Program-made: the position numbers and the translations under genes
Origin: Marsupella aquatica
Taxonomy: Eukaryota > Plantae > Marchantiophyta
Assembly: GCA_973895155.1 (NCBI GenBank)
Contig: OZ316899.1
Coordinates: 3,183,455 to 3,247,454, forward strand
Direction of reading: 5' to 3'
DNA length: 64,000 nt
The notes under the pieces: model-generated
What the model was told of the DNA's origin: nothing
Database searches by the model: none
Seen by the model: only the letters and a program-made list of their open reading frames with translations
Shown: one piece after another, positions 4,364 to 62,989 of the stretch
Layout of the letters: each line of letters begins with the position of its first letter
Position numbering within the stretch: the first letter of the stretch is position 1

Positions 4364-4369
4364 GCCCAT

Positions 4370-37499: not shown

Positions 37500-40400
37500 T
37501 GAGGGTGTTGTGGATTACATTAACTAGTGTGCTTTTGTACATGCCCTTGCCAGCACCCTCGTCTAGAGCCCACTTCCCGGGCCCCTTACATGCTACATGC
37601 CCACTACATATGAGGCTATGTTGTCTAAGAGTTTTTGAGAGCATTACACCAAAGCATTAACAAGTGAGCCTTCCCATGACTATATGACCTCCAATATGCC
37701 AACATAAATGGCTTCCAATATGATAGCGTGAGTGACCCCAAGTTTAGTCCTTAGATTGAAGCACCATTTAATTCACAAATGACCCAATGAACTCCCTTGT
37801 ACCTCCAAAGAGACCCCCCCAATAGCCTTTGTAAAGACCACATTTCCAGTCATTTAGTACTTCTGACCTCTAGTATGACAACCAAGATTACCCTAATTTG
37901 AGGTGTTTTCATTAATGACCACATATGCAGTCAATTGCTCCAAATGACCTCCAATATGACTACCAAGATGACCCTTATTGTAGTCATTGGCATTAATGAC
38001 AGACATTATGTGAAAATGACCCAATGAAGAGTATACTACCTCTCGGAGTGCCCCCTTACAATTCCTTTGAAATTTAATAGAATATATCCAAAATCCAAAT
38101 GTCGGCACAAACATGACATAGTTATATAGAGGACATAGTCTTCCACTAGTATTGCACTATATACCTCTTGGAGAGACAAAAACAATTTTTGTTTGCCTTT
38201 GGAATGGATGGTATGCATGCATGGTGATACTTTTGGCAAATCACTCCAATGTTGTATGACTTGGGAGTGATTTCCCCAAGGTTGCATCATCCCTTAAGTA
38301 ATTGCAAAAACTTGGCTCCAAAGTGCTCATGGTGCAACTAGTGGTTGGAGAATAGTAAGTATAGTATCCCGCACCTATTGGAAAGGTTGCCAGCTCCATG
38401 TAGGGCCCCATGGCAGTCTAGGGCCCACTTCCAGCCCTTATCCCCAAACTGGTCATTTAGGTTGGTCCATAATGACACCATGAGGGACCTCTTTAATGAC
38501 CAGGTATGCAGTCATTTGGTCCAAATGACTGCCAATATGACTGCCAAAATGACCCATATGGTAGTCATTGACTTTAATGACACACCGTTACTCCAAAATG
38601 ACACTACCTATTGGAGTGGCCCCTGGAAAATCCTTAGCAATTTAATAGAATATTCCTCACCCAAACGCCAGCACAAACATGACAAAGTTAAATCGAAGGA
38701 CAACAACCTTCCACTGGTTTTGCGCTTACTCTTAGAGAACAAGAAAACAACTATTATATAACTTTGAATGTGGTGGTATACATCCATGGTGACACTTTTG
38801 GCAAATCACTCCAAAACCGTATGCCTTGGGAGTGATTTCCCCAAGGTTTCATCGTGCCTTAACAAAATGCAAAAACATGACTCCAAAGTGTTCATGGTGC
38901 AACTAGTGGTTGGAGAATAGTGGGTATAGTACCCCGCACCTAGTGGAGAGGTTGCCACCTTCATGTAGGGCCCCATGGCACACTAGGGCCACCTTAAGCT
39001 CCTAGACTCAAAAGGGTCATTTCTGATGGTCCATAATGACACCATGAGAGACCTCTATAATGACCCCATATGCAGTCATTGTGCACAAATGACTTCCAAA
39101 ATGATTGCAAAAATGACCTTTATTGCAGTCTTTGGCATTAATGACACACTATTCCTCCAAAATGACCCAATGAAGATTACAACACCTACTCACAATGCCC
39201 CAACACTATTCATATGCAAAATGGAGTATTCCCCATCCAAACACCGGCACCAACATGACACAATTATATCACAGGATGACAACCTTCCATTGGTGTTGCA
39301 CTAGTTCTTGGAGAGACAAAAAAGGGCTTCGGCACCGATGGTATGCATCCATGGAGACACTTTTAGCAAATCACTCCAAAGTCATATAACTTGGGAGTGA
39401 TTTCCCCAAAGGTGCATCATGCCTTAAGTAAATGCAAAAACATGTGTCCAAAGTGTTCATGGCACAACTAGTGGTTGGACAATGATGAGTATAGTGTCCC
39501 GCACCTAGTGGAGGGGTTCTCAGCTCTATGTGGGGCCCCATGGCACTCTAGGGTCCACCTCCGGCCCCTAGCCCCAAACTGGTCATTTGTGCTTCTGCTT
39601 AATGACTGCACAAGGGACCCCTCAAATGACCACAAATCCAGTCATTTGACTTATGTGACAGCCCATATGACAGATTTAATGACCCTACTTGTAGTCATTG
39701 GTATTTATGACACCAATTTTTTCAGAAATGACTCAATGAAGATTACACTACCTCCTTGAGTGCCCCATCACCATTCATTTGCAAAATAGAATATTCCCCA
39801 TCCAAGCACCGGCACAAACATGACAGAATTACATGGAAGGATGACAACCTTGCACTACTTCTTGCAGAGACAAAAAAAATGGCTTCATTTCCTTTTAGAT
39901 AGGATGGTATGCATCAATGGTGACACTTTTGGCAAATCACTCCAAAGTTGTATGACTTGGGAGTGATTTCCCCAAGATTATATCATCCCTTAAGTAAACA
40001 CAAAAACATGGCTCCAAACTACTAATGGTGCAACTAGTGGTTGGAGAATAGTAAATATAGTATTTGACACCTAGTGGAGGGGTTGCGAGCTCTATGTGAG
40101 GCCACATGGCACTCTAGGGCCCACCTCTAGCCCTTAGCTCCAAATTGGTCATCCATGCTTGTCTTCAATGACTGCACTAGAGACCCCTCAAATGACAACA
40201 AGTCCAGTCATTTGAATTATATGACATCCCATATGACCATTTCAATGACCCTACTTGAGGTCATTGGCACTTATGACATGACTTTGTTAAAAAATGACCC
40301 AATGAAGGTCCTAGTACCGCCAGAGAGAGCCCGTTGTACATTCCTTGCAAAAATGGAATATTTGTATACCTTTAAACATCAGACACATCATAGAGGGAAG

Positions 40401-41400
40401 CACCACTGCCACGCCCATTCCATTGGTGTTGCGCTACCTCTTGGAGAGACAAAAAAGGGCTTCATTTGCGTTTGGAACAATGATATGCATCCATGGTGAC
40501 ACTTTTGGCAAATCACTCCAAAGTTGTATGACTTGGGAGTGATTTCCCCAAATTAAGGTGCATCGTGCCTTCAATAAACGCAAAAACATGTGTCCAAAGT
40601 ATTTACGTTGCAACTAGTGATTGGACAATGATGAGTATAGTGTCCCACACGCAGTGGAGGGGTTCTCACCTCTATGTGGGGCCACATGGCACTCTAGGGC
40701 CCACCTCCAGCCCCTAGCCCCAAACTGGTCATTTGTGCTTTTGCTTAATGACTACACAAGGGACCCCTCAAATGACCACAACTGCAGTCATTAGACTTAT
40801 ATGACTACCCATATGACAGTTTTAATGACCCTACTTGTAGTCATTGGCATTTATGATAGTCCATTGCTCACATATGACCCAATAAAGGCCCTAGTACCTC
40901 CAAAGAGAGCCCGCTTTAGATTCCTTGCAAGGTTGGAATATTCCTCTTCCCTAAACCTGCACCCACACCATATAGAGAAGCACGACTCCCCTGCCCATTC
41001 CACTGGTGCAGCACTACCTCTTCGAGAACCCAAAAACAATTTTTATTTGCCTTTGGATGTGATGGTATGCATCCATGGTGACACTTTTGGCAAATCACTC
41101 CAAAGTTATACGACTTGGGAGTGATTTCCCCAAAGGTGCATCATGCCTTAAGTAAATGCAAAGACATGTGTTCAAATTGCTAATGCCGCAACTAGTGGTT
41201 GGACAATGATGAGTATAGTGTCCCGCACCAAGTGGAGGGGTTGACACACTCGGGCCCACCTTAAGTTCATAGACCAAAAATGGTCATTTATGCTAGTCCA
41301 TAATGATACCATGAGAGATGTCTTGAATGACAACTTATATAGTCATTTGGTCAAATGACCTCTAATATGACCACTGACATTACCCTTATTGTAGTCATTG
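37500..41400. repeat. Tandem array of ~565-580-bp units (at least 6 copies) inside the CACTA element
   Basis: The marker AAATCACTCC recurs at 38238, 38803, 39368, 39934, 40510 and 41092, and the sequence between markers is homologous. Confidence 0.92.
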
Positions 41401-42129
41401 GCATTCTTCAATGACTCTACAATTATGATCGGTGTCTGGAATGACTATTGAGTATTTTGATCTTGATATCTCTTGGGTTCTTTAATGACTCTATAAGTAG
41501 TCATTTATGCAATAAGTCCATAATGACTGTATGTTATTGTAAACATTGATATATCATGATTTTTAGATTGACACTATATTTTGTCATTTGTGCGACAAGT
41601 CCATAATGACAGTATGGTGTTGTAAACACTGATATATATAAATTTCAAGATTGACCCTAGAGTTAGTCATTTATGAGAGAAGTCCATAATGACGGTATGT
41701 TGTTGTAAACACTGATATATTTTTATTTTCAGATTGACCCTAGATTTTGTCATTTAACACCGTTGGTTAAAATGACGGAAATACATTTTTGTCATTTATC
41801 ACCGTTATCCAAAATGACCCAAATAGATATTTGGTCATTTCATTCATTGTCCAAAGTGACTATAATGGTGCTAAACACTGATTTATCATTGTTGTTATTT
41901 ATTGGGTTATTTAGGACATGTGTCTAAATTGACCATTTTAGGAAAATTGTGTCATTTTGGTCGCATCAGTCATTATAGACATTATACAAAATGACGCAAA
42001 AGTTATCATTTTATCATTTCAAGATATTGGTCATTGTGGACAGTCATTCTCCTATCATTCTTTTTGTCATTAGAAATTTTGGTCATTGATTCATTTCCAT
42101 CATTGGGTGATTGGTCATAAAGGGCCCTA
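41400..42129. repeat. CACTA right subterminal repeat field (GTCATTT/AAATGAC motifs)
   Basis: Same motif as the left end, mostly in the opposite orientation. Confidence 0.8.
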
Positions 42130-42142
42130 TTTTCTTCTAATC

Positions 42143-42931
42143 ATTCTTCTATTGAAAGTCTTTGCGGAGATCTTCAAGCTCCCTCTTCAGTGCCCTCTCC
42201 TTCCTCTGTGCCTCTACCATGGCCTTATTGCAGATCATTATGTGAGTCGACTCCGTGTCTTTCAGCTCTTTCTTCCACTTCTCCTTCTCTTTGAGCGCCT
42301 CGGCCAATTGCCCTTGGATCTGGGCAAGTTTACTCTTGAATAACTGGTTATCAGCCTTGGATGTATCCAGTTGCCCCTGCATGATGCTAAGCTCATGCTT
42401 CCTAACCCGCAACTCATCTTGAGCATGCTTGGCTGCCTTTAGATCTCTAGCCTTGGCTTCCTTCTTTCTAAGCCATCGGATGACCTCTTCCTTCTTCATC
42501 CTCTCCAAGGCCACTACTTCTTCCAATCGGCTTTTATCCAACATCTCCCTTTGGATAAAAGGCCCCGTCTCCAACTCTCCCCCAAAGATGTTGAGGGCAA
42601 GTAATCCACACATCTTCCCATACTCCAAGGCTCTGCAACGTGCATATGTGGAGTGGTTAGGAGACACTGGCATCTTCCAATGCAGCCTTTGTCCCACATC
42701 GCCTTTCAAACCTCGTCAAACGTGGGTAGGGGGGCGGCTTGTTCTTCGGCAAGCCACCGAATGTCTTCTGGCCATCCTCCCCCTAGTAAATCCTTCTCCT
42801 TGGCCAGGGTTGCCTCCGCCAGATCTTTGAGTTGCTCTCTCAACTCCTCTGCGGCCTGTTTCATCCCATCATAATTTGGAGGAGGGACTTCAAGTGGGGG
42901 AGACTCCGGGCTTCTCTGTTGTCTTGGGTCC
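42143..42931 (-). mobile_element. Family-A element copy 3, proximal part
   Basis: Reverse-complement homolog of 22765-23175 and 54380-54820 (…RALEYGKMCGLLALNIFGGELE…), followed by coiled coil. Confidence 0.85.
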
Positions 42932-43424
42932 AGTCGTGGAACTCAACTACCTTAACACTTAGCTCCGGCGTCGCTGACTCTGATGCCAAGCTCCCTTATG
43001 GTCCAGGCCCGGATAGGCCATCCGGGGAGGACTTAGCATGGGGAGACTTGTGGGCAACAAGACGTGGTGCTAGCAAAGGCAAGGAGCCAAGCTGGTGACA
43101 CACACTAAGGACTTGGACTAGCAAAGAGCTGGTTGGGTCAAGGGGAAATGGGCTGGGCTCAAGGACGACCGTCCAGACTTCTGGATGGACTTTGAGTTCT
43201 GAGGGCTTGAGTGTGAGCTCCTCTTGGGCCCAAGGCCCATGGAGTTGACGCCATGGGCAATGAACGCTCGGGGCGCAAGTTATGGCCCGATCCGGGTTGG
43301 GCTGATCGGGGGCCCCGAGCGGCGATGAGACCTGAGGGCCTAGGCATGAGCACTGGGTTGGCCCAATCACAACGGGCTAAGGCAATCCGCTTGCAAATGC
43401 CCAACGAGAAAGTTATGGGCGTTG
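42932..43424 (+). mobile_element. Family-C LTR fragment (starts AGTCGTGGAAC)
   Basis: Reverse-complement match to 21355-21870; homology stops at 43424 where TGTCACACC begins. Confidence 0.85.
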
Positions 43425-44989
43425 TGTCACACCATTCTAGGTAGTGTTAGAGTGTATCGTACTATCTAGATCTGTATGTTTGGTATGTGTCCTATATGAG
43501 CCAATAAGGTTCCGTCAGGTTTGTGTGAGAGGGTACTTCTCACTTGTGAGGCATTGAAAGGTCATCTTTCAATGTTGAGCCTTGGAGAGAGAGGAGCTTG
43601 AGTGTGGCTATGGTGGCTGTGAGCTCCGCTTGTGTAACGTGGATTCCTTGAGTAGTGCAAGGTGCGTTGGCTTGACATACGTGTGTGATTGGATTGGTGC
43701 GGGATCGATGGGGTATTGTTGACTGAGATCGTTGTGCCGATTGTATTGAGATTACATTGAAAGATGAGGAGCTTCAAACTCTGTTGTGCGGATAGAAGCT
43801 CAATCTGAGTTTAGGGTATAGATTTGCTATAGTCGGTGTTGAGAAGTTTGTGTCTGATCTGTGCTGCCATTCGACGGACAGTATGCTGCTGTTCGCATTT
43901 TTGTGAAGTAGATCGGGCCTGTTGAGGTGTAGATGTTAGTAGATTGGGCCTACATCGTCGTCATATGCAGATTTGTTGGGCCGATCTGTTGTTTTCGCAA
44001 GGGTAACAACCGCGGATGTTGGTAGATCGGGCCTGCATTTCTGTGAAGGAAACTTGAGGCCAAAGTGTGGATGCTGCCGAATTTGGAAGTTGGGTCCGGC
44101 GTAGCAAAGCGTTGCGGGCCTACTCTTTGGCTCATCTTGGAAACTTGTGGTTACTTGGGACGAGGGGCGTGAGGGCGGAGCAGGAGCGGGCGGGCCAACA
44201 AGCCTTGCTAGTACGTGAGAAGTAGTTGCAAGCTGTTGATTTTGGAGCGGCCAATTTGGTGCATAACTACAAGTGAGAGGTCACCCATCCCAAAGCTATT
44301 CCTTCCCCACGCGCCTAACTATGTGGTTCTTAAGTGCTTTTGTGTACACACACTCCTTTCCACTTTGATGTTAATGGAATGAGCACTTAGGCATTTTATA
44401 CACATTCTGGTTTGTTTAGATTGTCATTTTGGACCAAATCATAAGCTCTCTTAGGGTTTTTGATGCTTTTGAATCCACCTAGATGCATGGATTGAACCAA
44501 TTGTGCATGGATCCTTAGCTACGACATTGAACATTGAGAGGCCTATTATGAAGGCCCTACATTGAACATTATGAACATTGCTTGATTGATGTATGGTCAC
44601 TGTTGATGTGGAGAGTTATTGTGGATCTCTTCTTGTTGATTGGATCCTCTCCACATATGCTTCCTGTTTATGCGCCATGTTAGTTTGGCGTGGGCGCTTG
44701 ATTCCATAGGAATGATCCGGGTTTGCAACCGGACATTCTAGTTGTGCTGCGTATTTCTCTCTTGGTGACGTTGGAGTGATGCCCAACACACCATGGTGAG
44801 TGCTTGTGGTGCTGACAGGGACAAATTGCCCTTAGGGTTAGCACATAGATTAGGTAAGGTTGGTCACCACGGATTCTTCTAGTGCTGCTGGGTTACTCGA
44901 TGGACGACGGACCGGTTTCACTTGGAGTGGGGCGTAGTTTTGGCCAGCGGCATTGGTAGAAGTCAGCAGTGCAACTTCAAACAGTGATT

Positions 44990-46080
44990 TCGACAAGGAC
45001 TCAGTGACCAGTTCTCCTCGTCATCAGGTGGTTGCACCTTTGTTGTAGGATATGGACGAGATGTACGGGGCTACAAAGGGCCCACAATGATACTCTAGTG
45101 CAGTTGGCACGATTGGTCTGGATGACTTCATCCAGGAGTTTGATACATGGTGCGATGTGCAGACATTGCGTAACGCCACGTTGTTTACCCCTTTCATGGC
45201 ATGGAAGGGATTATTTTGGCATTTGGAGGAGCCACCATAGATGACTACCATGAGTTTTGGAAGGCTCATTTGGTTGAGATTGAGGCATGGAGGCAGCATT
45301 GGTCACCTAATTATGTGTCCGTCATCTATGGCACTAGTGCAGCTACCCAACCCATTGCCACAGCTGCTGCTTCTTCTAGCAGCACTAGCCAGAGTGACAC
45401 ACCATCCACCAGTAGCACTCTAGCAGCATCCACCGCTACTCCTGCCGGTGTGCTTGTGACAGGGACTGGGGCTGCACCAGCATTTAACCCTATGGTGGAA
45501 TTCTTTGAGGTATTGAAGCAGAACTATCAGGGTGTGAGAACTGATAAGTTGAAGGGTCTCCAGGAATTCCAGCGCACTGGAGAGAGTCTACGTGAGGCAT
45601 ACACTCATATGCATAGATTGATCACTGTCACCAAGGGAGTGATAGAGGCTCAGGCAGTCTAATTTTGGTATGCAATTTTGGACAGAGAATTGTGATGCAA
45701 ATCTCACATTAGCAGTTGTTTTTACACTTTTGGAGCGCATTGAGCTCAATATGGTGAATGAGAAGGTGGTGACTTCCGGATTTGCCAAGGAAGCACCAAA
45801 GGCTGCATCTACATCCACATTGTAGCCTACTGCATGGAAGAGCCAGAGGGAGAAGCCTACTGCACGAGAGTCTACCAGCTAGAGACCTGTGCCCTCTTAT
45901 GATGGACAGCAGTCAGGATGTTGGACCTGTGGTGGGGATCATGCACAGAGATATTGTCCAGATCACGGAGGATCAGGGGGAGCATCAGCGCCTGATTAGC
46001 GACAGTGTGATCACTGTGGAGCTCCTAGACACACCAAGGATAGGTGTTTCTCACTCCATCCTGAGTTACGGAGAGGAGGA
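44990..46080 (+). pseudogene. gag: gag with two zinc knuckles (DNMT-gypsy element)
   Basis: ORF 45201..45662 and adjacent frames; knuckles near 45918 and 46006. Confidence 0.75.
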
Positions 46081-47037
46081 TCCCGTACACATGATCAAGG
46101 AAAAGGAGGAGGAGGTAGAGGTGGTGGTCCCAGGTGAGACCTACTTCTGGTGATGGGGCATCTACATCCTATGGACCTTTCACATCCCATGGTCCTTCCA
46201 CATCTTATGGAGCTGATGGAGACCTTGCCACCATGGGATTCATGTGTGGCACTGCACATATTGATGCATCAGCAGCTTTGGCACGTGGGACAACCAAAAC
46301 TCTTGAGCCCCGAGGAGCAATAGTGGAGCTAGATTCATAGAGGGGGGATGCATGTCGACAGACAAAGCTTCCTCAGTCTTTTACATTGTCAAAGACAGTT
46401 CAGACTACCTCTATGAATCCGGTTTGGACAAACCCTGGCGTGGGTAAGTTGGCAAAATTAGGTAGTGACGCAGTAGGGATGACAAGTACCCTACTGGGGG
46501 CGGCTACTGCCATAGTATGCACCCAATTATTTTTAGCGACAGACATGCTAAACTTGGGAGTTGGTCTTGCAGAAGTGTTCAGATTGGCAGCTACACTCTG
46601 TGAGGACTCTCCAGTGGTTGCTTCCCATGCAGAAGCAGCTTGCAGTGTTGAAGCAATGAAGACCATGCCACCTACTACTACTAGTGAGACATGGCATGTA
46701 TCAACAGCGAGGTTGGTGGATTTACCAGCACGCCCTGCATTTGAGAGGGCTAGATTTAAACCTAGTGTTGTGTCATTGGATAATCAAAGTTGTATCTTCC
46801 GATTAGTTGGGCCTTCTGGGGCAGTATACTTGCCAGAGAGAGTGTTACTGGATACAAGTGCTTAGCCCTTGATGTTGGGTAAGTCTGCCATATGTGGATT
46901 GGGATTGCATCCAGAGGATTTGGAGGATTGTCCCTTTCCCATTCAAACTTCATTGGGGGGACCTACACCTACACAACACATTACCAGGAGACCTCTCAAT
47001 TTGAGGATTCAGGAAGGTCATACCATAGGTAGCTCAC

Positions 47038-50000
47038 TGTCACGTCGTCAGCCTAGGCCTTAACCTGGGCTTTGGCTTAGACAGACACATCCTTCGTCAA
47101 AATGAGGGTTCGGGCAGGGAGGGAGGCACGGAATGCACCTAACTCACATAAACTAGCGCTAAGTACGCCTATTGTCATATACGGACACCTCTTAGGTATG
47201 GTTTGTGTTCTGCCGCCGGAACGTACCTCAGTCGATAGCAGGATCAACCCCGGCTTACGGGCTTCTAAGCCTTCGTGTTGTCCGCCTTTGATCCGGATTC
47301 GATGGTATGGGTACTCAACCCGAGCTTGCAACCACTTACCCGCAAGTTGCACCCCGTGCACGACTTGGGTAGTGCGTTTGGCCAAGCATTGGCACCTATA
47401 CACGAGATTCACACATATACATACACACAAGCATACAATCTCGATTTACACAAAGGAAATAATGGGAAAGGATTTTACTACATAGGAGACATATGCGTAC
47501 ACTTAGTTGACCCGAAAGCTCTGGAATGAACAGGTTCGAGGCCGAGGGTGTACACTACAACGGAGCCCGGCTCCGCACTTGCCCAACGAGCTTAGTCCTA
47601 CACCCTCCCCTTGGTACTCTTTCACTCCCAGAGGTTGGGACTCCCCACACATACCGCGGATGTCCAACACTGAGACTAAAAATCCCCCTGCCTCTACCAA
47701 GGGGTGCACTAAATACTAAGGGCCAAGGAACTGAGTGCCCTCTCGCCCAAAGATTCGCTAACTAAGGTCCTAACTAAGCTGGCTGTCAGGCCGGAAAACG
47801 GCTTGTCTTATTAGAAGATCCTAATCTATGTAGGTTGTACAGCATGGCAGTGCAGCTGCTTTAACTAGGGTAGGTGCTTGTCCCTATAGCCTAATTTAGC
47901 TACTCCTACTCTATTTTAATCCTACTCCACCGCTAATGCCTGGCACGCTTGCCAGAGCCGCCCAAGTGGGAGCGGCTATCCCGCTGCCTTCTGAGTCTGT
48001 CGGTGTCCTGCTTGAGTAGCTGGACCTGGTCCAGCAGAGACTCGTTCTCCCGCTTTGCCGCGTCCGCCTCTTCCGCGGCTCCTTGCATGCCTCCTCCAGT
48101 TGCTGGGTGTCACTCGTCAGCTTATCCACCAACTGGGCCTGTTTCGTGGCTTCTCCTTGAAGCCGCGCCACCTCTGTCTTTAGGGTGTCAATCTTGGCTG
48201 TGTCCCGCTGAGATCTAGAGTCAGCTTCCTCCAGATCCTTTTGCCAACTGACGGTTTGTCCCTTCAAACCGTCAATCTTGGCCCGGAGCCGTGCGATCTC
48301 GACGCCCTTTCCGAGCCCGGCCTGTTCTGCTAAAGCTACTCGGGCCCTAGCCTCGGCAACCTGGTCCTCCGTGGCCGTTACCTGAGGCCGTAGTTGCTGG
48401 AGTTCAGCCTCCAGGGTTGCCACTTTGTCCTTCAGGTAGACAGACTCAACCCGATATCGATCTATTCTCTGCGCTGTCTCTGCTTGCGCATGTCCTACCC
48501 TTACAGCCACAACCAACTCCTGGTTGAAGAAGTAGGCACCCTCCGGGCCATGTATTCCCCGGTGTCTGTTGCAAGAAATCTCCCAACAACCCGTTCAGAA
48601 ATGTGCCCGACGCAAAGAGTTCCGGATGATCTAGACTGTGTCCATCTGGATTCGGGCACGGGCAGACTCCAACCCGTGTGGGAGTAGGAGTGGACACATC
48701 CAGCCCTTGAGGTAAGTTGGTCGAAGGGGCTGGTTCCACTGGAGGTGGGCGGTTCTCCTGCACCACCGCGGGGGGTGGCGGAATCCCTCGGCTATCGTGG
48801 CATCTGCTTTGGGTATGGCTTCATCCGGCCTGGCTTTGATTGCATTGTCCCGATTGATCGCGTCTAAGGTCACGATAACATCAATGGGTATGCCTGGCAG
48901 GGCGGTAGCGGCGGGTTGTGGGGCCGGGGTAGCAGGACTTGCAGCTGCCAGACTTTGGGCCTTGGGCTGCGGTTGCGTCACCTGGGCTGGGAACACCCAT
49001 TTTGGCAGGGTCAGCTTGGGCTTGTTGAGACGCGGGAGGCTTAGGCGGTCGAAACAAGCATACCACTTGATGATGATTTTGATGTGGCTAGCGAAGCACG
49101 CCCTTCCGCCAAGGTACAAAGTCTTCCTTCTTCGCTCCATCTCCTCGTGGAACTTCTTGACGAAGAAGGACGCCCACTTCCTGGGCCGATAGTTCTCCAC
49201 CTGGATGACCTGAGCGGCCGATATTACTCCTCTGGGTTCCATCATGTGGAGGGCATACCGCTGGAACTTGAGGCGTTCTGCTACCTCCGGGATGAGGCAC
49301 GTCCTCATTAAGAACCCATTGTCCACTACCCCCTTGGCCGAGAAACTAGAGGACTGGTATTTAGCTCCCTTGCCCCCAGGAACCCGCGACTCTACTCGGT
49401 TTATCCCCTCGGGTAAACCAAAAATCATCTTTAGACGTGCCTCATTGAGACACATCACTCTCCCGTGCGTTCGGGTTTGTTGACGGGCCTAATCAAAGTT
49501 CTAAATGAACTCTGACATATCCTGTCCGTAGTACCTGCTTGAGTTCCAAGGGAGAGAGGCGAGGTGCTCAAACCCTTGGGTCTTCAGATAGCATGCATGC
49601 TTGGGGTGGAGGATGTTCTTGTGAACATTGTCCCCCATGCGATGCATGGTCAGCTTGGCTACCGCAACCGTGGCCAAAGGCAACCCGGATACGGTTGCGG
49701 GCTCCTTCCTCTTCCTACCCCGAGACTGATTCCCGGGGTGACTAGAAGAGGGGGACACCTCTCCTTCCTCTCGGTCAGGTGGTGGTAGCGCGACTGCCGT
49801 GAGTATTGGTGCCGGGGCCGCTAGAGTTACCGTGTTATCCCCTTGGGCTTGCTGGAGTGGTGCTGGGTTGTTCGGCGCTTGTTGAGTTGTACCCCGCGGC
49901 CGTTGAATCAGAGGAGGGTGAGCCTCCTCATCTTGGGAGCTAATATTTACCGCATTCACCACGGATCATACTCGGAGAGGCGGTGGAACCGGTGGCGGGG

Positions 50001-50979
50001 ACCGGCTTGGCTGAGGCCGAGGAGGTGTAGGTGCGGGTACGGGCATGGGTTGGCGGGCACTGGTCATTGATGGTAGAGTTGCCATGAAGTTTGCAGGTGC
50101 CGGTGGAGGTTTTCCGAAGCAAGTGAAGACGGCCCTGTCGACCGGGCAGTGTTGAACTCGCTGTTGATGATAGCCCGGACCCGAGCGGGGATGTGGTCAA
50201 AGTGGTGCCGCTGCAAATCGATCGTGCCCAGGATATTGAAGACCTCGTCCGGAAGCCAAAGCAATGTCTCCCAGAAGCCGATGTATTTTCCTCTGTCGAA
50301 GAAGTACCCTGATACTTCTTTGGGTTGGTAAAGCTCGCTGTGGGACGGGTAATCAAAGTGAAGGAGATAGTGGTGTCGTCCTGCTAGGCGGATGGCTCTC
50401 TCGTATTGGCGCGGGTTGGCGTGTTTCAATGAGTTGGCCAAGTGCCCTCCGATAGACAGGAACTGAGTCCAGAATCGCATGGCTGAACTAGAAAGGATCG
50501 TGTGCGACATTCAGAGGAGATAGCAGGTGACTAAGGAAAAAGCAAGAGAGCCGGGGTCAAAGCTGGCGCGTGGACTGAAGAACTGGTGCACTACAAAGGA
50601 TCGGCCCCCTTTTATACCCTGAGAGCTTGTTGATCGCCCGACGCCTCCTCGTCGCTTATAGGCCGAGTCTTTCACGCTCGTAGTGTACCGGCCCCTTCGC
50701 CGGTCCGGGTCAGCTCATGTCAGTGGCCGCCTCCCAGAGTTTGTTATACGGACCCGGGGGGAAAGGGGGCCCATTACACGCTCGCAACCCGGGCGTGCGA
50801 ATGGCGACCCGCCGCCAGCCCGAACATGAATTCCCCTTATTGACTAATGATTTTCTACTCATAATGACTACCTAAATACTATCGTTATGCTAATAATAAT
50901 GGCCTAAGATACCCCTAACGCACGTGCTAAGCGTGTTTAGACCGAATCACTCATTACCCGCCATACCGGCGACGTCACA
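47038..50979 (-). mobile_element. Family-B element copy 1, 3942 bp, TG...CA, 5-bp TSD CTCAC, single decayed long ORF
   Basis: CTCAC at 47033-37 and 50980-84; ends TGTCACGTCG.../...CGACGTCACA; collinear reverse complement of 57440-61459. Confidence 0.92.
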
Positions 50980-51429
50980 CTCACAGATACAGGCGTGAGC
51001 TATTCTGACTAAGGTAGAGTCATATGATGTGTTGGTACCCATGGGATTTATTCTTGGATTTTGGGAGGAATCAGTGTCATCTAGACCTGATTGGCAGTCA
51101 GGAGATGCTCGATTGAAAAAATTGCCAATGAGATTTAGTGGACCTATGGGAGGCCCTAAATCCACACCATTGTCTTTGGCAGCATTCAATGGTGTAATTG
51201 CTAGACCTGATGATTTGATTGAGGGTAATGCGCATGCAGCAGATGTTCCACCATTGGAGGAGTCTCTTGAGGAGCATATCATGCGAGATTACTTGTTGGC
51301 AGTGTTGTGCCACCAGTGTGGGGCACTACACAGGCCTTGCCATAGGCAGCAACACAATTGGTACATGATGCATGGCGTCATGCTTTTACACCAGAGTCAG
51401 GAGCAGAGCAGTCTTGTGCAGATGGACCG

Positions 51430-52216
51430 GTGACTCTTTCACCATTGGATACCACTCCTATTGCTTGGCAGTATCCATCGAAGGGTATTTGCTTGTTGGA
51501 TCTTTTTGGTGGGATTAGCACTGGATTGGCTGCTGTTCTTCAGGCAGGAATTCTTGTGTGTTGTTATTTGTATGTGGAGACAGATGAGACAACACAGAGG
51601 GTCTCATTGCGATATGTGGCTATGTTGGTGGATAGATATCCACAGTTTCTGCCAGTGGATGTTATTCGTGGTTATCAACATGCACTACCTGCTCATATTT
51701 CATTGTTGGGGGCAAATCATCTGCATCGTGTTGGCCCCATTGATTTAGTGATTGCTGGTTGGCCATGTGAGGGCCAATCTAGAGCTGGCGTTGGGCATGG
51801 ACTTCATGATCCACGCTCTGCATTGTTTTGGGAGATGTTATGGGTGCTGCATCATCTCCAGCTACAGCAGACAGTCTCCAGCATACATTTTGAAGAATGT
51901 GCCATTGTTAGGTGATGATCGTAGTCGGATTGTTGCCAGTGTTCACCAGGTGAGGTCTTGGATTGGACCTGATATGTTATTGGATGCTGCACGTGTGGGT
52001 TCTCGTGCACATCGTCCACGCTTGTGGTGGACTAATTTGATCCCATGTGAGGTGTTGAAGCGCGCATTTGATAGCATTCCACGCTAACCAGCCTTAGTGG
52101 TGGATGATATTTTGGATTCAGGGCGTCGTGCATAGAGTGTGACCCAACCTGATAGACCTCCATTGGCAAATGCAGTTGGGCGCCCACGTTGTGCATTACC
52201 CACTCTTGTAAGCCAC
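51430..52216 (+). pseudogene. Retrotransposon-encoded C5 cytosine DNA methyltransferase domain (DNMT3-like), motifs I-VIII
   Basis: Motif I LLDLFGGISTG; motif II YLYVE; motif IV DLVIAGWPCEGQSRAG with the catalytic PC; LFWEM; motif VI YILKNV (ENV decayed); motif VIII AHRPRLWWTNL. Frameshift near 51865; motifs IX-X cut off by the insertion at 52217. Confidence 0.9.
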
Positions 52217-54825
52217 TGTGATGCCTAGCCAGGAATCACTAGGCCAATTTAAATGGTAAAATCAGGAGTGTACCCTGGAAACACATTAGTATAGTAACAA
52301 AAACAAGGAAAATATAAACAATTAAGGGTGACTATGGAACCCGAGCCGAGGCCGGAAGTAAGGACGTCGAGAGAGGGAACATGATTAGGGTTAGGGCGCG
52401 CTAAGTACCAGCGGCTATGGGTAACTAACAGAAAGGAAGACCGGACAGGGGGGTAAGGATTGATTGCAAGGAATGGTGGCTCATTTGCAAGCACGAACTA
52501 AGCAGACGACTACGTGAAGCAACTACTGTCAACTGCTTAGGCAAGCACTTGGGGAGGGAGCAGATACCAACTATCAATTCAAGGAAGGGTAGGAGCAACG
52601 TCAATCAGGCTGCTCATTTTTGGGGATGCCTGTTAGAATGGGCAACTGAGTACATTGGGACCTACAAGGACAAAGAATCGGAGAGAGCCGCCCGAGATCG
52701 ATAGGAGCTTGCTCGAGATTGACAGGAGCTTGCTTGACTATGGGAGCTGCAGAAGTCTGCCTTCTTAGGAGGAGAACTCATCACAGCTGAATTCCTGTGG
52801 ACACCTACTAGCGATGAACTTGATGATCTTCTCTTTTGTGAGAACAAAATAGTCGGCATCCGGGAAGCCATCAACTGCTGTAACGACATACACTGGGAGT
52901 TGAAGGGTAGCACGGAGGGGTGGACAAAGGCAACCGTGCTAGGAGAAACATCCACGGCAACAACTATGAAGAGGAAAGGGAACGTCAACGAAGTGACCAC
53001 CCCCGCAAAGAGAACGAGGGTGGCGGCACCAAGGAAGCCATCTGAGCAAGGGAGCAAGAGGCAGGACAAAGTCGAAGAAGAGGAGGTCGACCCCATCAAT
53101 GTTGTTCCGACAAGAGATGACACCTGGAAAGGCTGGACGGCGACCCTCCCCGAGGAAGTGCAATTACACTTTGCACGTGAAGAGGATGCATGCTTTACGG
53201 CTATGCAGACTCGGAAGTACCAGGGCTTCATGGCCGGATCCGGCTTGGAAGCTTTCATGAAATTACCATGGTTGAAGCCGGAGGTGCCAGATTCAGACTT
53301 ATTAGAATTTGTGGGATCATGGGAACCTGAGACCAATTCTGCAAGGGTGTATGGGAAGGATTTCTATCTCACTCCCCGGGTGATTGTCAAAGTGTTTGGC
53401 TTGCCGATGGGCAATAAGACCAAAGTAGATACCCGGAAGACCTTGCCAGACAAGGAGTTCCAATTGTTCCCAGGGCCATCAACGAAGAATGGCTTCTTTC
53501 GGAACACCTACACCAACCCGCACATAGGAGAGATCATCGATTTCTTGCGGGTAACCATGCATTGCAACTTGTCGAGGCCAGAGATTGGCAAGGCACAAGT
53601 CTACCTAGCGGAAAGGCCAGACCCAAGCCGGGACTACAACGGGTACCTCCTCACCCAACTGAAGAAGATCTTGAAGGAGGAACAGCAGGCGATCGGCATG
53701 GGAAGCGTGTCTCGGCTTGGCTATCACATGTCGCTGTTGTGCCGGTATGCCTGAAGTCAGATCTTTGCCCCGATACTTCCACTACAAGGGCACCAGAGGA
53801 GGTTCCGGAACAGAGGCCGGCAACAGAGAAACCAAACCAGCCCGACAATCCTACAATCGAGCAGGTGTTTAGGCCGAGGACAGAGGACTTGCCAATGCAG
53901 CAACCAGGCATGCAGAATCCGCTGAAATTGCTGGAGAAGGAAAAGAGAACGGCAATGGCAACGGCACAGGTACAGGACACTCCTTCAGAGGTCGGCCTAA
54001 GCCGACTCATGAAGGAAAACCCCTTTACCGGAGCCAAGGTAAGAAGGAGGCCAGAACACAAGCCGGGGGTTTGAATGTATGTAGGAGCCTCGAGTCCTAT
54101 AGTCGAGGGAAGGTAGCCTAAGGCTCCTGTTCAGGGGAAACCGAGGGAGAAGACAGCTTGGAAGCCAGAGGAGGAACTAGGACCTGCTAGCTATGATCGG
54201 CAGGAGGCCATGTTCACGGCAAGACCAGGAGAGCAGCGGGGGGAGCCGGTAGTCCAAGCAGTGGAGGAGGCGGTGGAGGACTACGGCAATGATGACTCCG
54301 GCTACAGGTCGGACCATCATGTCCCAGGAATAAGGACCTGTGGCCGCTTCATCCCCACGCTTCCAAGAGTAGTTCGAGGGGACCCCACCCAGCAGAACAG
54401 CCCCGCGCGAGTCCCCCCCGCCAGATGTTGCTCCCCCGAGCTTTGACGACATAAAACAGACGGCACAAGAGTTTTAGGAGCGACTCAGGGAGGAAGAGAG
54501 GGCAGCCCTGGCTAGGGAGAAAGATTTACCAGGGGGAGAATGGCCAGAGGACATCAGGCAGCTTGCAGAAAAACGAAGCAACCCTCCAGCCATGATAGAA
54601 GAAATCCGCAAGGCGGCTTGGGAACAAAGGCCGCGGTGGTTGATGCCAATGACTTCTACTCACTCCACCTATGCTAAAGAAAGAGCCATGGAGTACGGGG
54701 AGATGTGTGGGGAACTTGCGCTCAGCATCTTTGGGGAGGAGTTGGAGTAGGGACCTTTTTTCCAGAGGGAGATGTTGGAAAAACGCCGATTAGAAGAAGC
54801 GGTGGCTTTGGAGAGAAGAAAGAAA
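52217..54825 (+). mobile_element. Family-A element copy 2
   Basis: Starts TGTGATGCCTAGCCAGGAATCACTAGGCC as at 18286; ORF 52900..53754 and flanking frames. Homology to the other copies is lost near 54825. Confidence 0.85.
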
Positions 54826-57798
54826 GACGAAAATTTTGGAAATGCTACATGGAGCTTCAATCTTTGCCTGTGCCTCGCGAAGAAGAATTGGCACTCCTGA
54901 AGAACAAACTTTGCCTCGTTAAAATTGCTATCATGGATGAGTACTCTCTGGGAGCTGTCCAGGATTTTTCCTTCACAGATAATTGCGTTCGCGAGCTGGA
55001 GCTTGAAGATGCACACTACTACCGGTGTGAGTATTGGGTAATACCGAAAACCTGAAATTACTGAAAAATTTAAACTTTTTACAGTGTTTAAGCCTACTGT
55101 TGCTGTTAAAATGCCAAGTGTAAACTACGGGTATACTTTATAACGGGATTACACATTTACGTGTATAAGCGTTACGCGTTTATGGGTTTACGGGTTTACG
55201 CAGTTTTTAAGTTACGCCAATACAGGTTACGGCCTACACCTTACGCGTTTAAGGAAAGTGTACGTTACGGCGCTACGGCTAACTTTGCAACGGGACTTAG
55301 AAACGGATTGGGGACTTCATACCTTGATAGGAATCAAGCAGAGAGTTCAGGCGCTCACTCCTGTATTTTCACCACTCCTATTCACTTGCTCTTTCTCTTC
55401 GAAATCAACCTTTGCAGCACGCAAATCACCGTCGCAGCTATGGCAAACCTGGGTGCTGAGGAACAGTATCAAATTGAAGCTCTAGCAGTCTCAAAAGTAG
55501 TGGCAGCTCGTATACCACGAGCGCCTGATAGTCTTTCTAATCTACAAGACTCTTTACAGCACTTAGGATTGGAGCGCTTGCTCAGGATCCCCTGGAATGT
55601 CGAGCTCGACTCCTACTTGCAGGATTTTGTGAAGGGGACTATCATCCCGATTGAATTCAGGTGAACGATGCAAGCTCACCCCAGCCTGTGGACTGTTGAG
55701 CAAATTGCTTACGCTTTTGGATGCCCGTCAGAAGGAGAGGCGTTATATTCCAAGAAGCAGGACTTATCTACTCCATACTTCTCAGGAACTTGAAATGCCA
55801 AGAATGGTTGGAACTTGTCCCAGTGTACTTATCCTGAATTGAGAGTGCTCATGGAATTTCTGGTACCCATTCTTCATCCAAAAAAGCCAACTCTCTGTCC
55901 TGTGGCCTTGGCTAACACCATTGTAGCTGCTCACAATGGAGCTATAAAAGTAAATTGGGCCCTACTTCTGTTTAATGTAATGAAGGATCAAGTAAGGAGC
56001 TTGGAAGCAGGGAGGACCACTTGCTTACAAAATTATCTCTCTCAGCTCTATTATACCCATGACTGTTTATATCTGGAGGAAGAGACAGAGAGGGGGTTAC
56101 TCCTGATTGACTTGGGTATTGAAGAAGAAATTCCTATGGAGGACATTGTACATGTCACCCCATTGAATTCGAATGATCAGAACGTTGCGGAGAATGCTGA
56201 TGTTCCTATGGAGGATGCTTCATTAGAAGTTCCTACACATTCTCCTATGCATAGCAGGGAAGTTGTTTGCCAATCAATAAGTAATGAGAATTTCCCTAGC
56301 CGGACTATGGATGCAGATCCACTAGAAGCTGAAGAAGTAAGGAGCATTCATCAACAAGACGATGTTGCTACACCAACTGATGCTACTCCTCATGAGACCA
56401 CCAGGTCCACTCCTTCGAAGGCAGAGTCGAATCAGCAGCTTATTGATAAGTTGACATCTCTCCTCAGTTGCAATGATGATGGACTATATGATGCTGTTAA
56501 TAATTTGAGAATGGAGGCTGTTAGTTTGAGATCACCATTTCATGACCAGCTAAGTCCTGTCAGAATGACCTCTTCCCCAAGAGAACCAGCACCAATGGAG
56601 TTTGTGAATAGTACTCCTGTCACTGTACAGCCCCCTCCCCTAGAAACATGTGAACCTGTTCCACTAGCAGATAGTACCAGCTGTGTGACCATTGTGGATG
56701 ACTTGTTAGAAATACTACAGTGTGAACCTCGACAGATAGCATCTGTGGTCCACAACTTGATCCAACAATGTCCAACTACTAGTCCTACTCCTAGCCCAGG
56801 TTCGCAACCTTACAGCCCTGATTCCAACTACGAACCCACAGAAGGACCCACCTACAATCGGTCACAATATGAGCACCCTTACGACAGAGAAGATCTACCT
56901 GAAGACTCTGATCCACCCTCAAATGGTGAAACTTATAGATCTTATGATAATTCTCTTGAGTCATCCCCAAGGCAAGGATTTGAAGATGTTGATACTGCCT
57001 TAAGATCCAATCCAAACTTAGTAGTAGTTGTCACCTCATCTACTCAAACACCTCGGAATGCCACCATCGAGAGTAGATACCCGAGACATCCAGAGTCCCA
57101 AGTGCACAGGTATGTGGAGACCTGTAAGATAATGCAAGCCAACAGACCACCGGTTGGAGAGTTTTGGAAATACTACTATCTCAAGAAGACAAAGGCCAGT
57201 TATATCTTCGACCTCAGGTGTTTTGGAACTTCCAGACTGGAGATGGCACAATTCGATGAGTTCTGGACTGACTCTCTCTATTTCCGACCCATTCTTGCTG
57301 TGATGCTACTTCAGGGTGATGTAGAGGTGGAGGATCCAGATTTAGTTCTGGCATATTTTGGAAATTTGGCAGCTTATGCCCTAGATTTTGTGGTTTCTTT
57401 TCTCATGTAGAGTAAGAAATCTACTTCTCCCTAGAACGCTGTGACGCTGCCGGTACGGCAAGTAATGAGTAATTCGGTCTAAACCGTGCCTAGCACGCGC
57501 GTTAGGGGTATCTTAGGCCGCTATGATTAGCATAACGATAGTATTTAGGTAGCCATTATGAGTAGGAAATCATTAGTCAATAAGGGGAATTCATGTTCGG
57601 GCTGGCGGCGGGTCGCCATTCGCACGCCCGGGTTACGAGCGTGGAGGGGCCCCTCACTCGGGTCCGTATAACGAACTTTGGGAGGCGTCCATTGACACGC
57701 GGTGACTCAGACCGGCGGAGTGGCCGGTACACTACAAACGTGAACGGTTCAGCCTATAGGCAACGAGGAGATGTCGGGGGATCGACAAGCCCTCAAGG

Positions 57799-57807
57799 TA
57801 TAAAAAG
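57799..57807 (+). promoter_or_regulatory. TATA box of the family-B element
   Basis: TATAAAAAG about 100 bp upstream of ATG 57907; conserved in copy 1 (TATAAAAGG on minus, near 50610). Confidence 0.65.
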
Positions 57808-57906
57808 GGAGCGGACCCTTTGGAGTGCACCAGTCCATCAGTCCACGCGCCAGCTTCGACCCCAACTCTCTCGTTTGCTCTAAGTCGCCACTACTATCTC
57901 CTCTGA

Positions 57907-60560: not shown

Positions 60561-62989
60561 AACGGCGGAGTAGGAATAGAATAGGGTTAGGAGTAGCTAA
60601 GTCAGGCTATTGGGACAGGCACCTGCCTTAGTTACAGTAGCACTGCCATGCTGTCCAGCCTGCGTAGATTAGGATCTTCTAATAAGACAGCCATTTTTTG
60701 GCCTGACAGTCAGATTGGTTAGGACCTAAGTCAGCGAATCTTCAGGCGGGAGGACACTCCGTTCCCCGCCCCTTAGTATTTAGTGCACCCCTTGGTAGAG
60801 GCAAGGGGGGGTTTTTAGTCTCAGAGTTGGACATCCGTGGTATGCGCGGGGAGTCCCGACCTCTGGGAGTGAAAGAGTACCAAGGGGAGGGGGTAGGACT
60901 AAGCTCGTCGGGCGAGTGCGGAGCCCGGCTCCATTGTAGTATACTCTCTCGGCCTTGAACCTGTTCATTCCGGAGCTGTCGGGTCAACCAAGTGTACGCA
61001 CATGTCCCCTATGTAGTAAAATCCTTTCCCATTATTTCATTCGTGTAAATTGAGATTGTATGCTTGTACGCGTGTATGTGTGTGTGAATCTAGTGTATAG
61101 GTGGCAACGCCGGGCCGAACGCACTACCCAAGTCGTGCACGGGGTGCAGCTTGCGGGTATGTGGTTGCGAGCACGGGTTGAGGACCTGTATCATTGAATC
61201 CGGATCGAAGGCGGACAACACGAAGGCTTAGAAGTCCTTAAGCCGGGGTCGATCCTGTTATTGACTAAGGTACGTTCCGGCGGCGGAACATAAACCATAC
61301 CTAGGAGATGTCTGTATCTAATAGTAGGCGCACTTAGTGCTAGTTTACGTGAATTAGGTGCATTACGCGCTTCCCTCCCTGCCCAAACCCTCATATTTAC
61401 GAAGGAGGTGCCCGTTTAAAGCTGAAGCCCGAGTTAAGGCCAAGGCTGATGACGTGACAAACGCTTACCTTCCTCGAGAGCCCAAGGTTACCCTTGTTTC
61501 AACCAGCTCATTTGCCGAGAAACAGAGGATCTGGAACAATGTCACCTCTCAAACTCTGGCCAACTTCAACCGGTATTTCAGAGATGTCAAATGGAGGCTT
61601 CACCCTTTCTATTCCAGGATGCTGAACTCTGATGAATTTCTATACCATTATCCCCAAGTATATGCTGCTACTTGCAATAATTATGATGTGATTGGGATAT
61701 ATAGAGAAGCTCTTCGAATAGACATATGTTATCTAAGGAGAAGAATGCCCTTGATGTATCCTGAAAGGCAATTGAGATGCCTACCCTACTCTCGAGGATC
61801 CCCACGCCAGGGTGAACTGATGGAAGTTACTCAAGCTCGGACTGTTACCCTCGTGGAGCTACTCGAACCAGACGACATCCGACAACAAGCTTGAGGCAGA
61901 ATCTAAGTGTTTTAATTAGTTTTAAGAGTAGTACATCTTTCCCTATTTTTCAAAATGTGTTATAGAGCTTTAAAAGCTATGAAACTTATTTAGTGTATAG
62001 TCTGTGCATAGAGAAACTCACTGGTGTTGTAACTCATACCTGAGTTAAGTCTACCTTTGGGATAACTACCTATGTAACTACCCTAACTACTTAGGCTGTA
62101 GCCACATGTACATATTCTACCAGGAATACAGATGGAACAACTTTTTGTCTCATTTATCCCACAACACGTTATCAGCACGTAGCTCTCCACGAGCAATCTT
62201 TTCTTTGAGAGAAAGGCCAGATTTTCATTGAATGTTTATAGATTTGACATAATTGCCCCTCCCAAGAAGCTATGGATGAGAACTTCGCGATTACATTTCT
62301 AATTTTAGGTTTAACAAGGACGTTTGTGATTCCTCCAAATCTCATTGCGGAAGCCATGGACTACTAAAAATAACAATCATCTTGATGTTGACGCTAATGA
62401 TGAGTTCAGGCCGAACCATGACGGACCGATCTCATACGGACATTGAAGATCACTTAAGGAGGCACGAGAGAGAGCGAGAGAAAACGATTAAGCAAGAATT
62501 GAGAAAGAGTCGGTGTGAGAGAAAGCACTGGCAACGAACATTGATAAGGCGCTGACAAAGAGAATCGAAAGTATTAAGGATTGAGGCGAGAAACAATAAG
62601 GATTGAAGGTGAAGAAACCCCTCTGGAAATGACCTTTAAATCTGAGAAGAAACGAAACAAATTCTGATAAGGATAGCAGATAAGGAAAATTAAAGAGGAT
62701 CGGTGCATAAAACGATCGAGAGAGGAGGAAAGGCACAAACAAAACAGAGGATCGAAGGCAACCATTCAAAGACTGAGAGCGCATTCCATAAGGACAACAT
62801 TGAATAGAGACAAGAATTGAAAAGCAGTACCGCAGAACAGAATCCATAAGAAAAGACTGAACCTCACCCCACTGATCGAAGGCGAAAAAAAATTCAAGCA
62901 GCAAAAGCATCGGGAGGCACTGGCAAAGAACCATAAGAGAAATGACGATCAAAAAGCAGAAAGAAGAATTTGATTAGGACATCGCGACC

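Follow-up and report, generated by a model that had tools for sequence, protein, structure and literature searches.

Does the liverwort Marsupella aquatica carry a retrotransposon that encodes its own DNA methyltransferase, or do the two merely lie side by side in the stretch of contig OZ316899.1 analysed here (64 kb, hereafter the window)? The benefit of a captured methyltransferase to a retrotransposon has been a question since 2018, and the sole example in the green lineage is algal: KnitGypsy-Dnmt3, a DNMT3-carrying gypsy element of Klebsormidium nitens (de Mendoza 2018, PMC5890265). According to the accessible part of that paper, Marchantia and Sphagnum were outside its survey. Land plants "such as tracheophytes" lack such elements according to the accessible text of a later paper (Morozov 2019, PMC6338049).

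What the window contains is the 5' half of a Ty3/gypsy-type element that has decayed; the copy is dead and twice interrupted. Its features are listed below.

43425 to 43754, plus strand: repeat A, 330 bp, 5' terminal, the left integrase attachment end, starting with TGTCA
43552 to 43575, plus strand: hairpin inside repeat A, with the predicted RNA self-primer in its 3' arm (MFE and centroid folds)
43755 to 43767, plus strand: predicted primer-binding site that could pair with the hairpin arm (sequence complementarity)
45052 to 46130, plus strand: gag with two CCHC zinc knuckles (45919-45957 and 46006-46047), frameshifts and stops (tblastn)
46700 to 47037, plus strand: N-terminal part of an aspartic protease, VLLDTSA at 46842-46862 (tblastn, motif)
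47038 to 50979, minus strand: insertion of another family that splits the protease, 3,942 bp, TG...CA, 5-bp target duplication CTCAC
50980 to 51480, plus strand: C-terminal part of the protease (SYDVL at 51020-51034), then the linker before the DNMT; stops and a single frameshift (tblastn, motif)
51481 to 52216, plus strand: DNMT3-like C5 methyltransferase with motifs I, II, IV, VI and VIII and the start of the recognition region (Pfam, tblastn)
52217 to 54830 (3' end not defined), plus strand: later element from a different family, truncating the DNMT, with the same start as a copy at 18286

The sequence-only reading had named gag with two zinc knuckles, the VLLDTSA protease and a DNMT with five motifs, and all of these were located. 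The DNMT motifs are I (51493-51525), II (51565-51579), IV (51754-51774, PC intact), VI (51887-51901) and VIII (52007-52039), and PF00145 matches with E=7.7e-6 (26 bits, cut-off 22), while the other seven of the eight scanned pieces showed no significant Pfam family. By tblastn, gag matched the Marchantia protein P0008 in three frame-pieces with 47-75% identity, and another relative, P0001, spans protease, linker and DNMT at 65-82%; P0001 itself matches Asp_protease_2 at E=0.0012, under Pfam's cut-off. The copy had also been called dead, and it is matched with the frameshifts, the stops and the change of ENV to KNV in motif VI. The DNMT has one frameshift near 51875, contains stops and ends at 52216 before motifs IX-X, so that, judged by its motifs, the window copy lacks the set of an active enzyme.

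The protease frame had been read as continuing across the insertion. Contigs of runs X2 and X8 join 47032 to 50980, omitting exactly 3,947 bases, so the continuity of the protease is seen in other DNA as well. A second copy of the protease-splitting element lies at 57440-61459. The later insertion said to cut the DNMT is present where the domain stops, and contigs of runs X1 and X8 continue beyond 52216 into other sequence. Within the 64-kb window, tblastn revealed no motifs IX-X, RT, RH or INT of the DNMT-carrying family, and no target duplication matching the cut at 52216 was found downstream. The 3' half of this copy is missing from the window, not displaced. At the other end, the flanks upstream of 43425 are mixed, with contigs of three runs diverging there (16, 27 and 15 in number; agreement 0.38-0.46). 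Depth drops near 43755, at the 3' limit of repeat A.

CpG observed/expected was 0.26-0.37 in the coding parts of the DNMT element and 0.59-0.86 in neighbouring elements; the DNMT element is older than these neighbours, so the depletion was not counted as evidence.

A host DNMT3 fragment lying beside a gypsy remnant, or algal contamination of the contig, would give a similar picture, all the more as the window lacks the RT and integrase and our DNMT tree contained no host DNMT3 sequence. We consider this extremely improbable. Chance juxtaposition and contamination are refuted by the linked homologues, the continuous alignment over protease, linker and DNMT, and the uninterrupted joint in X2 and X8. 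Among 80 related loci, a protease lies upstream of the DNMT in 66, RT downstream in 56, some retroelement domain is linked in 76, and 20 carry all seven core domains in order, most of the 80 loci being one close subfamily and thus not independent. After clustering at 97% (64 clusters) the numbers are 53, 46, 61 and 17, respectively. Copies with all core domains were recovered, and a land-plant lineage of such elements, as had been supposed, is seen in the longer homologues (n=34; 20 of them named: Marchantia 16, Calypogeia 2, Sphagnum 2). The DNMT domain is intronless and unpermuted, and in the tree the window DNMT falls among bryophyte elements with a support of 1.0. The contig also carries a BPC/GAGA-binding fragment and an EMS1-type kinase region, both of land-plant type. 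The latter is 75-76% identical to Sphagnum proteins, 74% to a Ginkgo-labelled protein and about 55-70% to those of flowering plants. The EMS1 tree, with a support of 0.28, did not assign the host to any one land-plant group, be it moss, liverwort, lycophyte or fern.

In the relatives the order is gag(2xCCHC)-PR-DNMT-stop-RT-RH-INT-PHD, so the DNMT sits between protease and RT as had been claimed, and a PHD finger closes the integrase in at least 20 loci. The order gag-PR-RT-RH-INT of Ty3/gypsy elements is found in 20/80 loci, and the window copy holds gag-PR-DNMT only. For the RT of P0021, Ty3 RT is the best solved match (E=4e-48). TG...CA termini, a target duplication within 4-6 bp and a polypurine tract agree with Ty3/gypsy membership; two direct terminal LTRs are absent, and the ends are A...B-A-B or A...B.

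The placement of the DNMT within the polyprotein holds in part. It is in the Gag-PR frame, but in bryophyte copies it ends before a conserved stop. Of 49 loci that extend far enough in the 3' direction, 45 have this stop in register between DNMT and RT (TAG 32, TAA 13), the divergent loci L026 and L069 among them. Six proteins, Marchantia and Calypogeia among them, end 88-94 residues past motif X. The stop is followed by CAA-CCC, which departs from CARYYA at the final base in 42/45, and in the main subfamily an ATG lies two codons past the stop, so reinitiation is possible. No stop was found in Closterium P0336, nor in P0035 and P0344, where DNMT and RT share one open frame. The position of the conserved stop predicts that DNMT and Gag are produced at a similar level.

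Though the window copy has decayed, the family retains motifs I, IV (PC), VI (ENV), VIII, IX and X of active C5 DNA methyltransferases. For family member P0003 human DNMT3A was closest (E=6e-12), and an ESM Atlas search gave C5-methylase clusters only. The structure model was poor (pLDDT 51.6), and its best fold matches, DNMT3A/B, add little. Median dN/dS of the DNMT between the window and 62 loci was 0.22, with dS to the window near saturation (1.45), and it was 0.17 between L026 and the same 62 loci. Within the main subfamily dN/dS was 0.60 for DNMT, 0.59 for PR, 0.42 for RT, 0.37 for INT and 0.34 for RH. These ratios show a DNMT under purifying selection, which within the main subfamily is weaker than on RT, RH and INT and like that on PR.

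What is the DNMT kept for? We infer from sequence that it probably methylates the element's own DNA. It may instead be retained to bind DNA or RNA as a module linked to Gag, or methylate RNA or the target site and not cDNA. The weaker constraint and the PHD finger of the integrase, which suggests chromatin targeting, fit with this, as does the algal homologue: the KnitGypsy-Dnmt3 enzyme gave no methylation on yeast DNA, a result its authors called inconclusive in the accessible text (PMC5890265). Nevertheless, PC is kept in 62 and ENV in 55 of 64 decayed clusters, both also in Klebsormidium, and the SymbioDIRS-Dnmt3 domains methylated CG, as the same text states (PMC5890265). A role other than cDNA methylation is unlikely in our judgement.

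The proposal that these are LTR elements was right for the gypsy domains and TG...CA ends, but not for the repeats, which are split (A...B-A-B or A...B) and are not ordinary LTRs. At 10 independent sites the target duplication was an exact 4 bp in seven and had one mismatch in two, and at the remaining site the 5' end was lost; none had 5 bp. The B|A junction is CA-NN-TG in 8/8 rows, NN being GC in five, and for the family of the window copy one X8 contig has this B-end/GC/A-start junction. The rve integrase and PHD finger occupy the space up to the purine tract, with no tyrosine recombinase seen there. Repeat A of the window aligned to that of L067 with score 149 (200 shuffles 108.6+/-10.8, maximum 142).

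Just behind repeat A no tRNA-type TGG primer site was seen by eye. A perfect 14-bp inverted match joins 43562 and 43754, and primer-site complementarity is 11/12 (control maximum 8/12). The hairpin is paired in both the MFE and centroid folds, with a folding z of only about -2. In L067 a hairpin occupies the same position with other sequence, so the predicted self-priming signal appears to co-vary between families. Among 25 relatives the best 12-mer complement falls at A position 160-175 in 12, and at least 10/12 complementary bases are kept in only 11.

Together, we consider it probable that this is a bryophyte Ty3/gypsy-type family with a DNMT3-like domain between PR and RT, likely methylating its own new DNA. 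The RNA would begin within the loop of the repeat-A hairpin; the 11-13 bases at its 5' end would pair with the site behind A and prime without tRNA, as in Tf1. Most ribosomes would halt after the DNMT, which could give about one DNMT per Gag in the particle, and rare readthrough of UAG-CAA-CCN would yield RT-RH-INT-PHD. The protease would free the DNMT to methylate double-stranded cDNA within the particle, so that the copy would already be marked on entering a methylated genome. The B-GC-A unit behind the polypurine tract would act as the LTR and the cDNA would circularise. The DDE integrase would open the circle at the palindrome GACA-GC-TGTC inside this unit, one-LTR circles giving A...B and two-LTR circles A...B-A-B. 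The readthrough, cDNA methylation and circle-integration steps rest on relatives because the 3' half is absent in the window copy.

That split repeats occur alongside a DDE integrase suggests that circles are integrated. However, the circle model also predicts A-B-A...B, and B stands upstream of A in 0/25 5' ends, which speaks against it. The element and its DNMT may be as proposed while the split repeats are copied from RNA by PAT/Ngaro-like template switches, the integrase acting on linear DNA and A...B arising by later B1-B2 recombination. That absence of A-B-A...B favours such a route; five of seven independent A|B joints are identical, and the Klebsormidium repeats were likened to DIRS by their authors in the accessible text (PMC5890265). 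Against it, the polypurine tract before B1 and the primer site after A1 are placed as in a normal LTR unit B-A, two of the seven joints have extra bases like end-joined circles (one being the rearranged copy L047), and 3' ends with B alone are commoner than B-A-B (10 against 6) even though B is just 115 bp. We regard template switching as a serious possibility that falls short of probable, and keep the circle model.

PAT/Ngaro-type split-direct-repeat elements have the A...B-A-B layout and a tyrosine recombinase, and Tf1 uses a primer of 11 bases. SymbioDIRS-Dnmt3, which also has a DNMT3 inside a retroelement (PMC5890265), shares the tyrosine recombinase with PAT/Ngaro, whereas bryophyte copies encode a DDE integrase and have TG...CA termini flanked by target duplications. 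Tf1/sushi and the plant Tcn1 chromoviruses likewise have a primer site directly behind the 5' repeat, complementary to a stretch within the repeat, and no tRNA site (Neumann 2019, PMC6317226, accessible part). They carry a chromodomain where the bryophyte family has a PHD finger, and the bryophyte family differs further in its split repeats and DNMT. Troyka has a gypsy-like domain order and unusual ends (Kojima 2025, PMC12440569). By the accessible text its CG...CG ends, 3-bp duplications, ordinary LTRs and restriction to animals differ, and identity is ruled out by the TG...CA ends and 4-bp duplications of the bryophyte family.

The closest system is the one the sequence-only reading had pointed to. 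Klebsormidium GAQ93235, from species and architecture presumably one of the copies in PMC5890265, aligns with Marchantia P0008 over protease, linker and DNMT (569 columns, 29%, E=1e-54). In the DNMT tree, built without host DNMT3, bryophyte and Klebsormidium sequences fall on the same side of the midpoint root (support 0.75), and in the RT/RH tree Marchantia, Closterium and three further PR-DNMT elements group at 1.0. By sequence comparison the bryophyte family appears to be a branch of KnitGypsy-Dnmt3 in land plants, and Closterium and Mesostigma have relatives too. The bryophyte family and KnitGypsy-Dnmt3 share gypsy domains and an unpermuted DNMT3-like domain that follows zinc knuckle and protease, as well as purifying selection and, per figure legend, a DIRS-like repeat layout (PMC5890265). 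The bryophyte family differs in land-plant hosts and high copy number. The authors of KnitGypsy-Dnmt3 placed DNMT and RT in one ORF, whereas in bryophytes a conserved stop lies in the same frame; GAQ93235 ends 21 residues past motif X. For KnitGypsy-Dnmt3 the accessible part of PMC5890265 mentions no PHD finger, no self-priming signal, no 4-bp duplication and no internal palindrome for attachment.

Neither DNMT-carrying elements in land plants nor permuted-repeat gypsy elements in plants turned up in a literature search (few subscription journals, without Repbase); the accessible parts of PMC8226279, PMC9477723, PMC8566409, PMC11982613, PMC10952607 and the supplement of PMC12344493 held nothing relevant. 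In the literature found, DNMT-carrying elements are described in algae only, and land-plant members are thus unreported there. More tentatively, and rather doubtfully as a whole, there may be a streptophyte-wide gypsy-type lineage, abundant in mosses and liverworts, with an undescribed replication design: RNA self-priming, a Gag-level DNMT3 before a readthrough stop that pre-methylates cDNA, a DDE integrase inserting circles via a palindrome inside the LTR, and PHD steering.

For annotation, LTR finders expecting two equal LTRs would miss such split-repeat elements, and copies of the family inflate the counts of DNA methyltransferases in bryophytes. Marchantia polymorpha has many copies, and since methylomes and methylation mutants exist for this genetic model, the role of a captured methyltransferase is testable there.

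In the copy at 43425-52216 (translation of 44800-52300), gag begins at 45052 and carries two CCHC knuckles, the protease motif follows at 46842, and motifs I, II, IV, VI and VIII of a C5-methyltransferase lie between 51493 and 52039. This is the series, and the place, that the sequence-only reading had claimed. Eight pieces were scanned with Pfam, and only 51346-51912 was above cut-off (PF00145, E=7.7e-6). Gag starts 1.63 kb behind the 5' end of the element, as in the related metagenomic locus L062. Inserted in the protease is an element of 3,942 bp (47038-50979); its ends are TG...CA and a 5-bp duplication flanks it. In contigs of two other sequencing runs (X2 and X8), 47032 is followed directly by 50980, so an uninterrupted protease form exists elsewhere, matching the earlier proposal that the frame runs across the insertion. 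A second element truncates the DNMT at 52216, and past this point contigs of runs X1 and X8 continue with sequence fitting the next residues of the related protein P0001. No RT, RH or integrase of the DNMT-element family was found within the 64-kb window. The copy is dead, as had been read: it carries several frameshifts and stops, shows KNV instead of ENV at motif VI, and also lacks motifs IX-X.

The other features of the window were as follows.

9391-13773, minus strand: EMS1-type LRR receptor kinase, intronless, about 1,400 aa
63016-63393, plus strand: BPC/GAGA-binding family fragment (Pfam PF06217, E=3.9e-6)
47038-50979, minus strand, and 57440-61459, plus strand: an element of 3.9-4.0 kb present twice, TG...CA ends, 5-bp target duplications
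52217-54830, 18286-23174, 42463-43424 and 4131-4721: second repeat family, nested around the DNMT element
26548-33512, minus strand: CACTA-type DNA transposon remnant (Transposase_21, E=1e-54 at 30626-31729)
37770-41760: units of about 565 bp repeated in tandem; the array is edged by shorter units of 83 bp

Algal contamination, raised earlier as a possible objection, does not fit the EMS1-type kinase region, which showed 75-76% to named Sphagnum proteins and 74% to a Ginkgo-labelled protein. In the kinase tree, placement among land plants had low support (0.28). The contig belongs to a land plant, probably a bryophyte. Both copies of the 3.9-4.0 kb element have long open frames (620 aa; coiled-coil protein) and neither gave an RT or Pfam enzyme match; they may be solo LTRs that bear genes, or non-autonomous elements. 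Open frames of the second repeat family had no Pfam match. The CACTA-type remnant contains a cysteine-rich PHD-like frame at 33033-33512.

Among longer proteins, 34 matches were found, 20 of them named (Marchantia 16, Calypogeia 2, Sphagnum 2). Several show the order gag-knuckles-protease-DNMT, and the gene models of P0020, P0021 and P0033 extend into RT, RH or integrase. The metagenome scan confirmed 124 stretches. Among the best 80 of these 124, protease lay upstream of the DNMT in 66 and RT downstream in 56, and 20 had all seven core domains in order. At least one retroelement domain was present in 76/80, the remaining four having short or unrelated flanks; the claimed link of DNMT to gag, protease and RT is a family trait. 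Clustering of the 80 at 97% left 64, most of them a single subfamily near the named Sphagnum proteins. The family RT matched Ty3 RT most closely, the DNMT gave its best match to human DNMT3A (E=6e-12), followed by DNMT3B, DRM and HhaI/HaeIII, and relatives have a PHD finger at the integrase end. The existence and architecture of this family are firm. The suggested land-plant lineage of DNMT-carrying LTR elements stands for Marchantia, Calypogeia and Sphagnum, but not as ordinary LTR elements, for the relatives have no paired LTRs.

With a profile search, 433 clusters were obtained at E<=1e-30; the best 150 of 433 showed two layouts, PR-DNMT-RT and RT-RH-DNMT-INT-PHD. Species names were obtained for 8 of 30 proteins looked up: those of the chlorophyte Hariotina (3) have the second layout, while Closterium (3), Mesostigma (1) and Klebsormidium (1) all have the first. 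The Klebsormidium protein aligned with Marchantia P0008 over 569 columns spanning protease, linker and DNMT. P0036-P0044 and about 70 of P0191-P0339 form a large polyprotein group in which the DNMT is placed between RNase H and integrase and a PHD is frequent; three are from Hariotina, and one polyprotein of the group carries NUDIX and G-patch. A tree of 134 DNMT sequences, from which short matches and nine near-duplicates had been dropped and in which host DNMT3 was not represented, grouped the window within the Marchantia, Calypogeia and Sphagnum elements (support 1.0), and deeper nodes were weak. In the RT/RH tree (48 sequences) the five PR-DNMT elements formed one clade with support 1.0. 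Vertical descent within streptophytes is the simplest reading; transfer between lineages is a possible alternative.

The DNMT element is real and is a variant of KnitGypsy-Dnmt3-type elements. KnitGypsy-Dnmt3 was described, with cDNA methylation proposed, by de Mendoza et al. 2018 (PMC5890265); in the available text of that paper its domain had no activity in yeast, and the survey did not include Marchantia and Sphagnum. Morozov et al. 2019 (PMC6338049, available text) reported such elements as absent from land plants "such as tracheophytes", and the accessible parts of a 2025 paper and a 2026 preprint mention only "streptophytes", citing the 2018 work. No land-plant report was found in the literature searched, a check the first reading had suggested.

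Of the 64 clusters, 62 retain PC and 55 retain ENV. For the DNMT, comparing the window with 62 loci gave a pairwise dN/dS of 0.22, and L026 gave 0.17, dS being close to saturation. Values inside the main subfamily, inflated by post-insertion decay, were DNMT 0.60, RT 0.42, RH 0.34, integrase 0.37, gag 0.40 and protease 0.59. These values and the motif retention show that the DNMT domain evolved under purifying selection, weaker than that on RT.

An in-frame stop about 94 codons behind motif X, just before RT, was present in 45/49 loci (TAG 32, TAA 13), followed directly by CAA-CCN in 44, and six named or unnamed bryophyte-type proteins terminate 88-94 residues past motif X. The stop is absent from P0035, P0336 and P0344. 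Its context is similar to the plant-virus readthrough signal UAG-CARYYA, but only L026 matches in full, and a nearby ATG allows reinitiation instead. By either route, Gag, protease and DNMT would be made as a single product, with RT-integrase made less often.

Relatives open with repeat A (320-340 bp) and end with B-A-B (6 loci) or B alone (10 loci), B being 115 bp, with a purine tract upstream of the first B. Their outer ends are TG and CA, and a 4-bp target duplication was exact at 7 of 10 independent sites, with one mismatch at two and the 5' end lost at one. In 8/8 rows the internal B|A joint reads CA, then two bases, then TG, making the palindrome GACA-GC-TGTC. Repeat A of the window is 43425-43754: contigs split into mixed flanks before 43425, depth drops near 43755, and one X8 contig shows the same joint. 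These forms match one- or two-LTR circles of a B-GC-A unit, which would be cut at the palindrome to give A...B or A...B-A-B copies. The absence of B upstream of the first A (0/25 copies) counts against such circles, since random cutting of two-LTR circles would yield it. The Klebsormidium element has DIRS-like repeats yet gypsy domains according to a figure legend, and in the review file DIRS elements are given the A/B arrangement seen here (both PMC5890265).

A hairpin lies inside A, and its 3' arm is complementary to the bases behind A, the window having 14 perfect pairs. Sphagnum-type loci have a complementary arm at the same place with different sequence, about 30 bases behind a TATA-like box. 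The best complement lay at A position 160-175 in 12/25 relatives, 10 of 12 being reached in 11/25, and the helix was closed in MFE and centroid folds of both predicted RNAs (z about -2). Self-priming is known from Tf1/sushi and Tcn1 (Neumann et al. 2019, PMC6317226, available text). The upstream arm may be a lock masking the primer copy in the 3' repeat. Some copies (L062, L079) have the hairpin deleted and A shortened to 322-324 bp.

That self-methylation, readthrough, self-priming and circle integration would all operate together is rather doubtful. Our main reading, which we somewhat favor, is of a dead copy from a bryophyte gypsy-type family whose DNMT3-like enzyme likely methylates the element's own new DNA.
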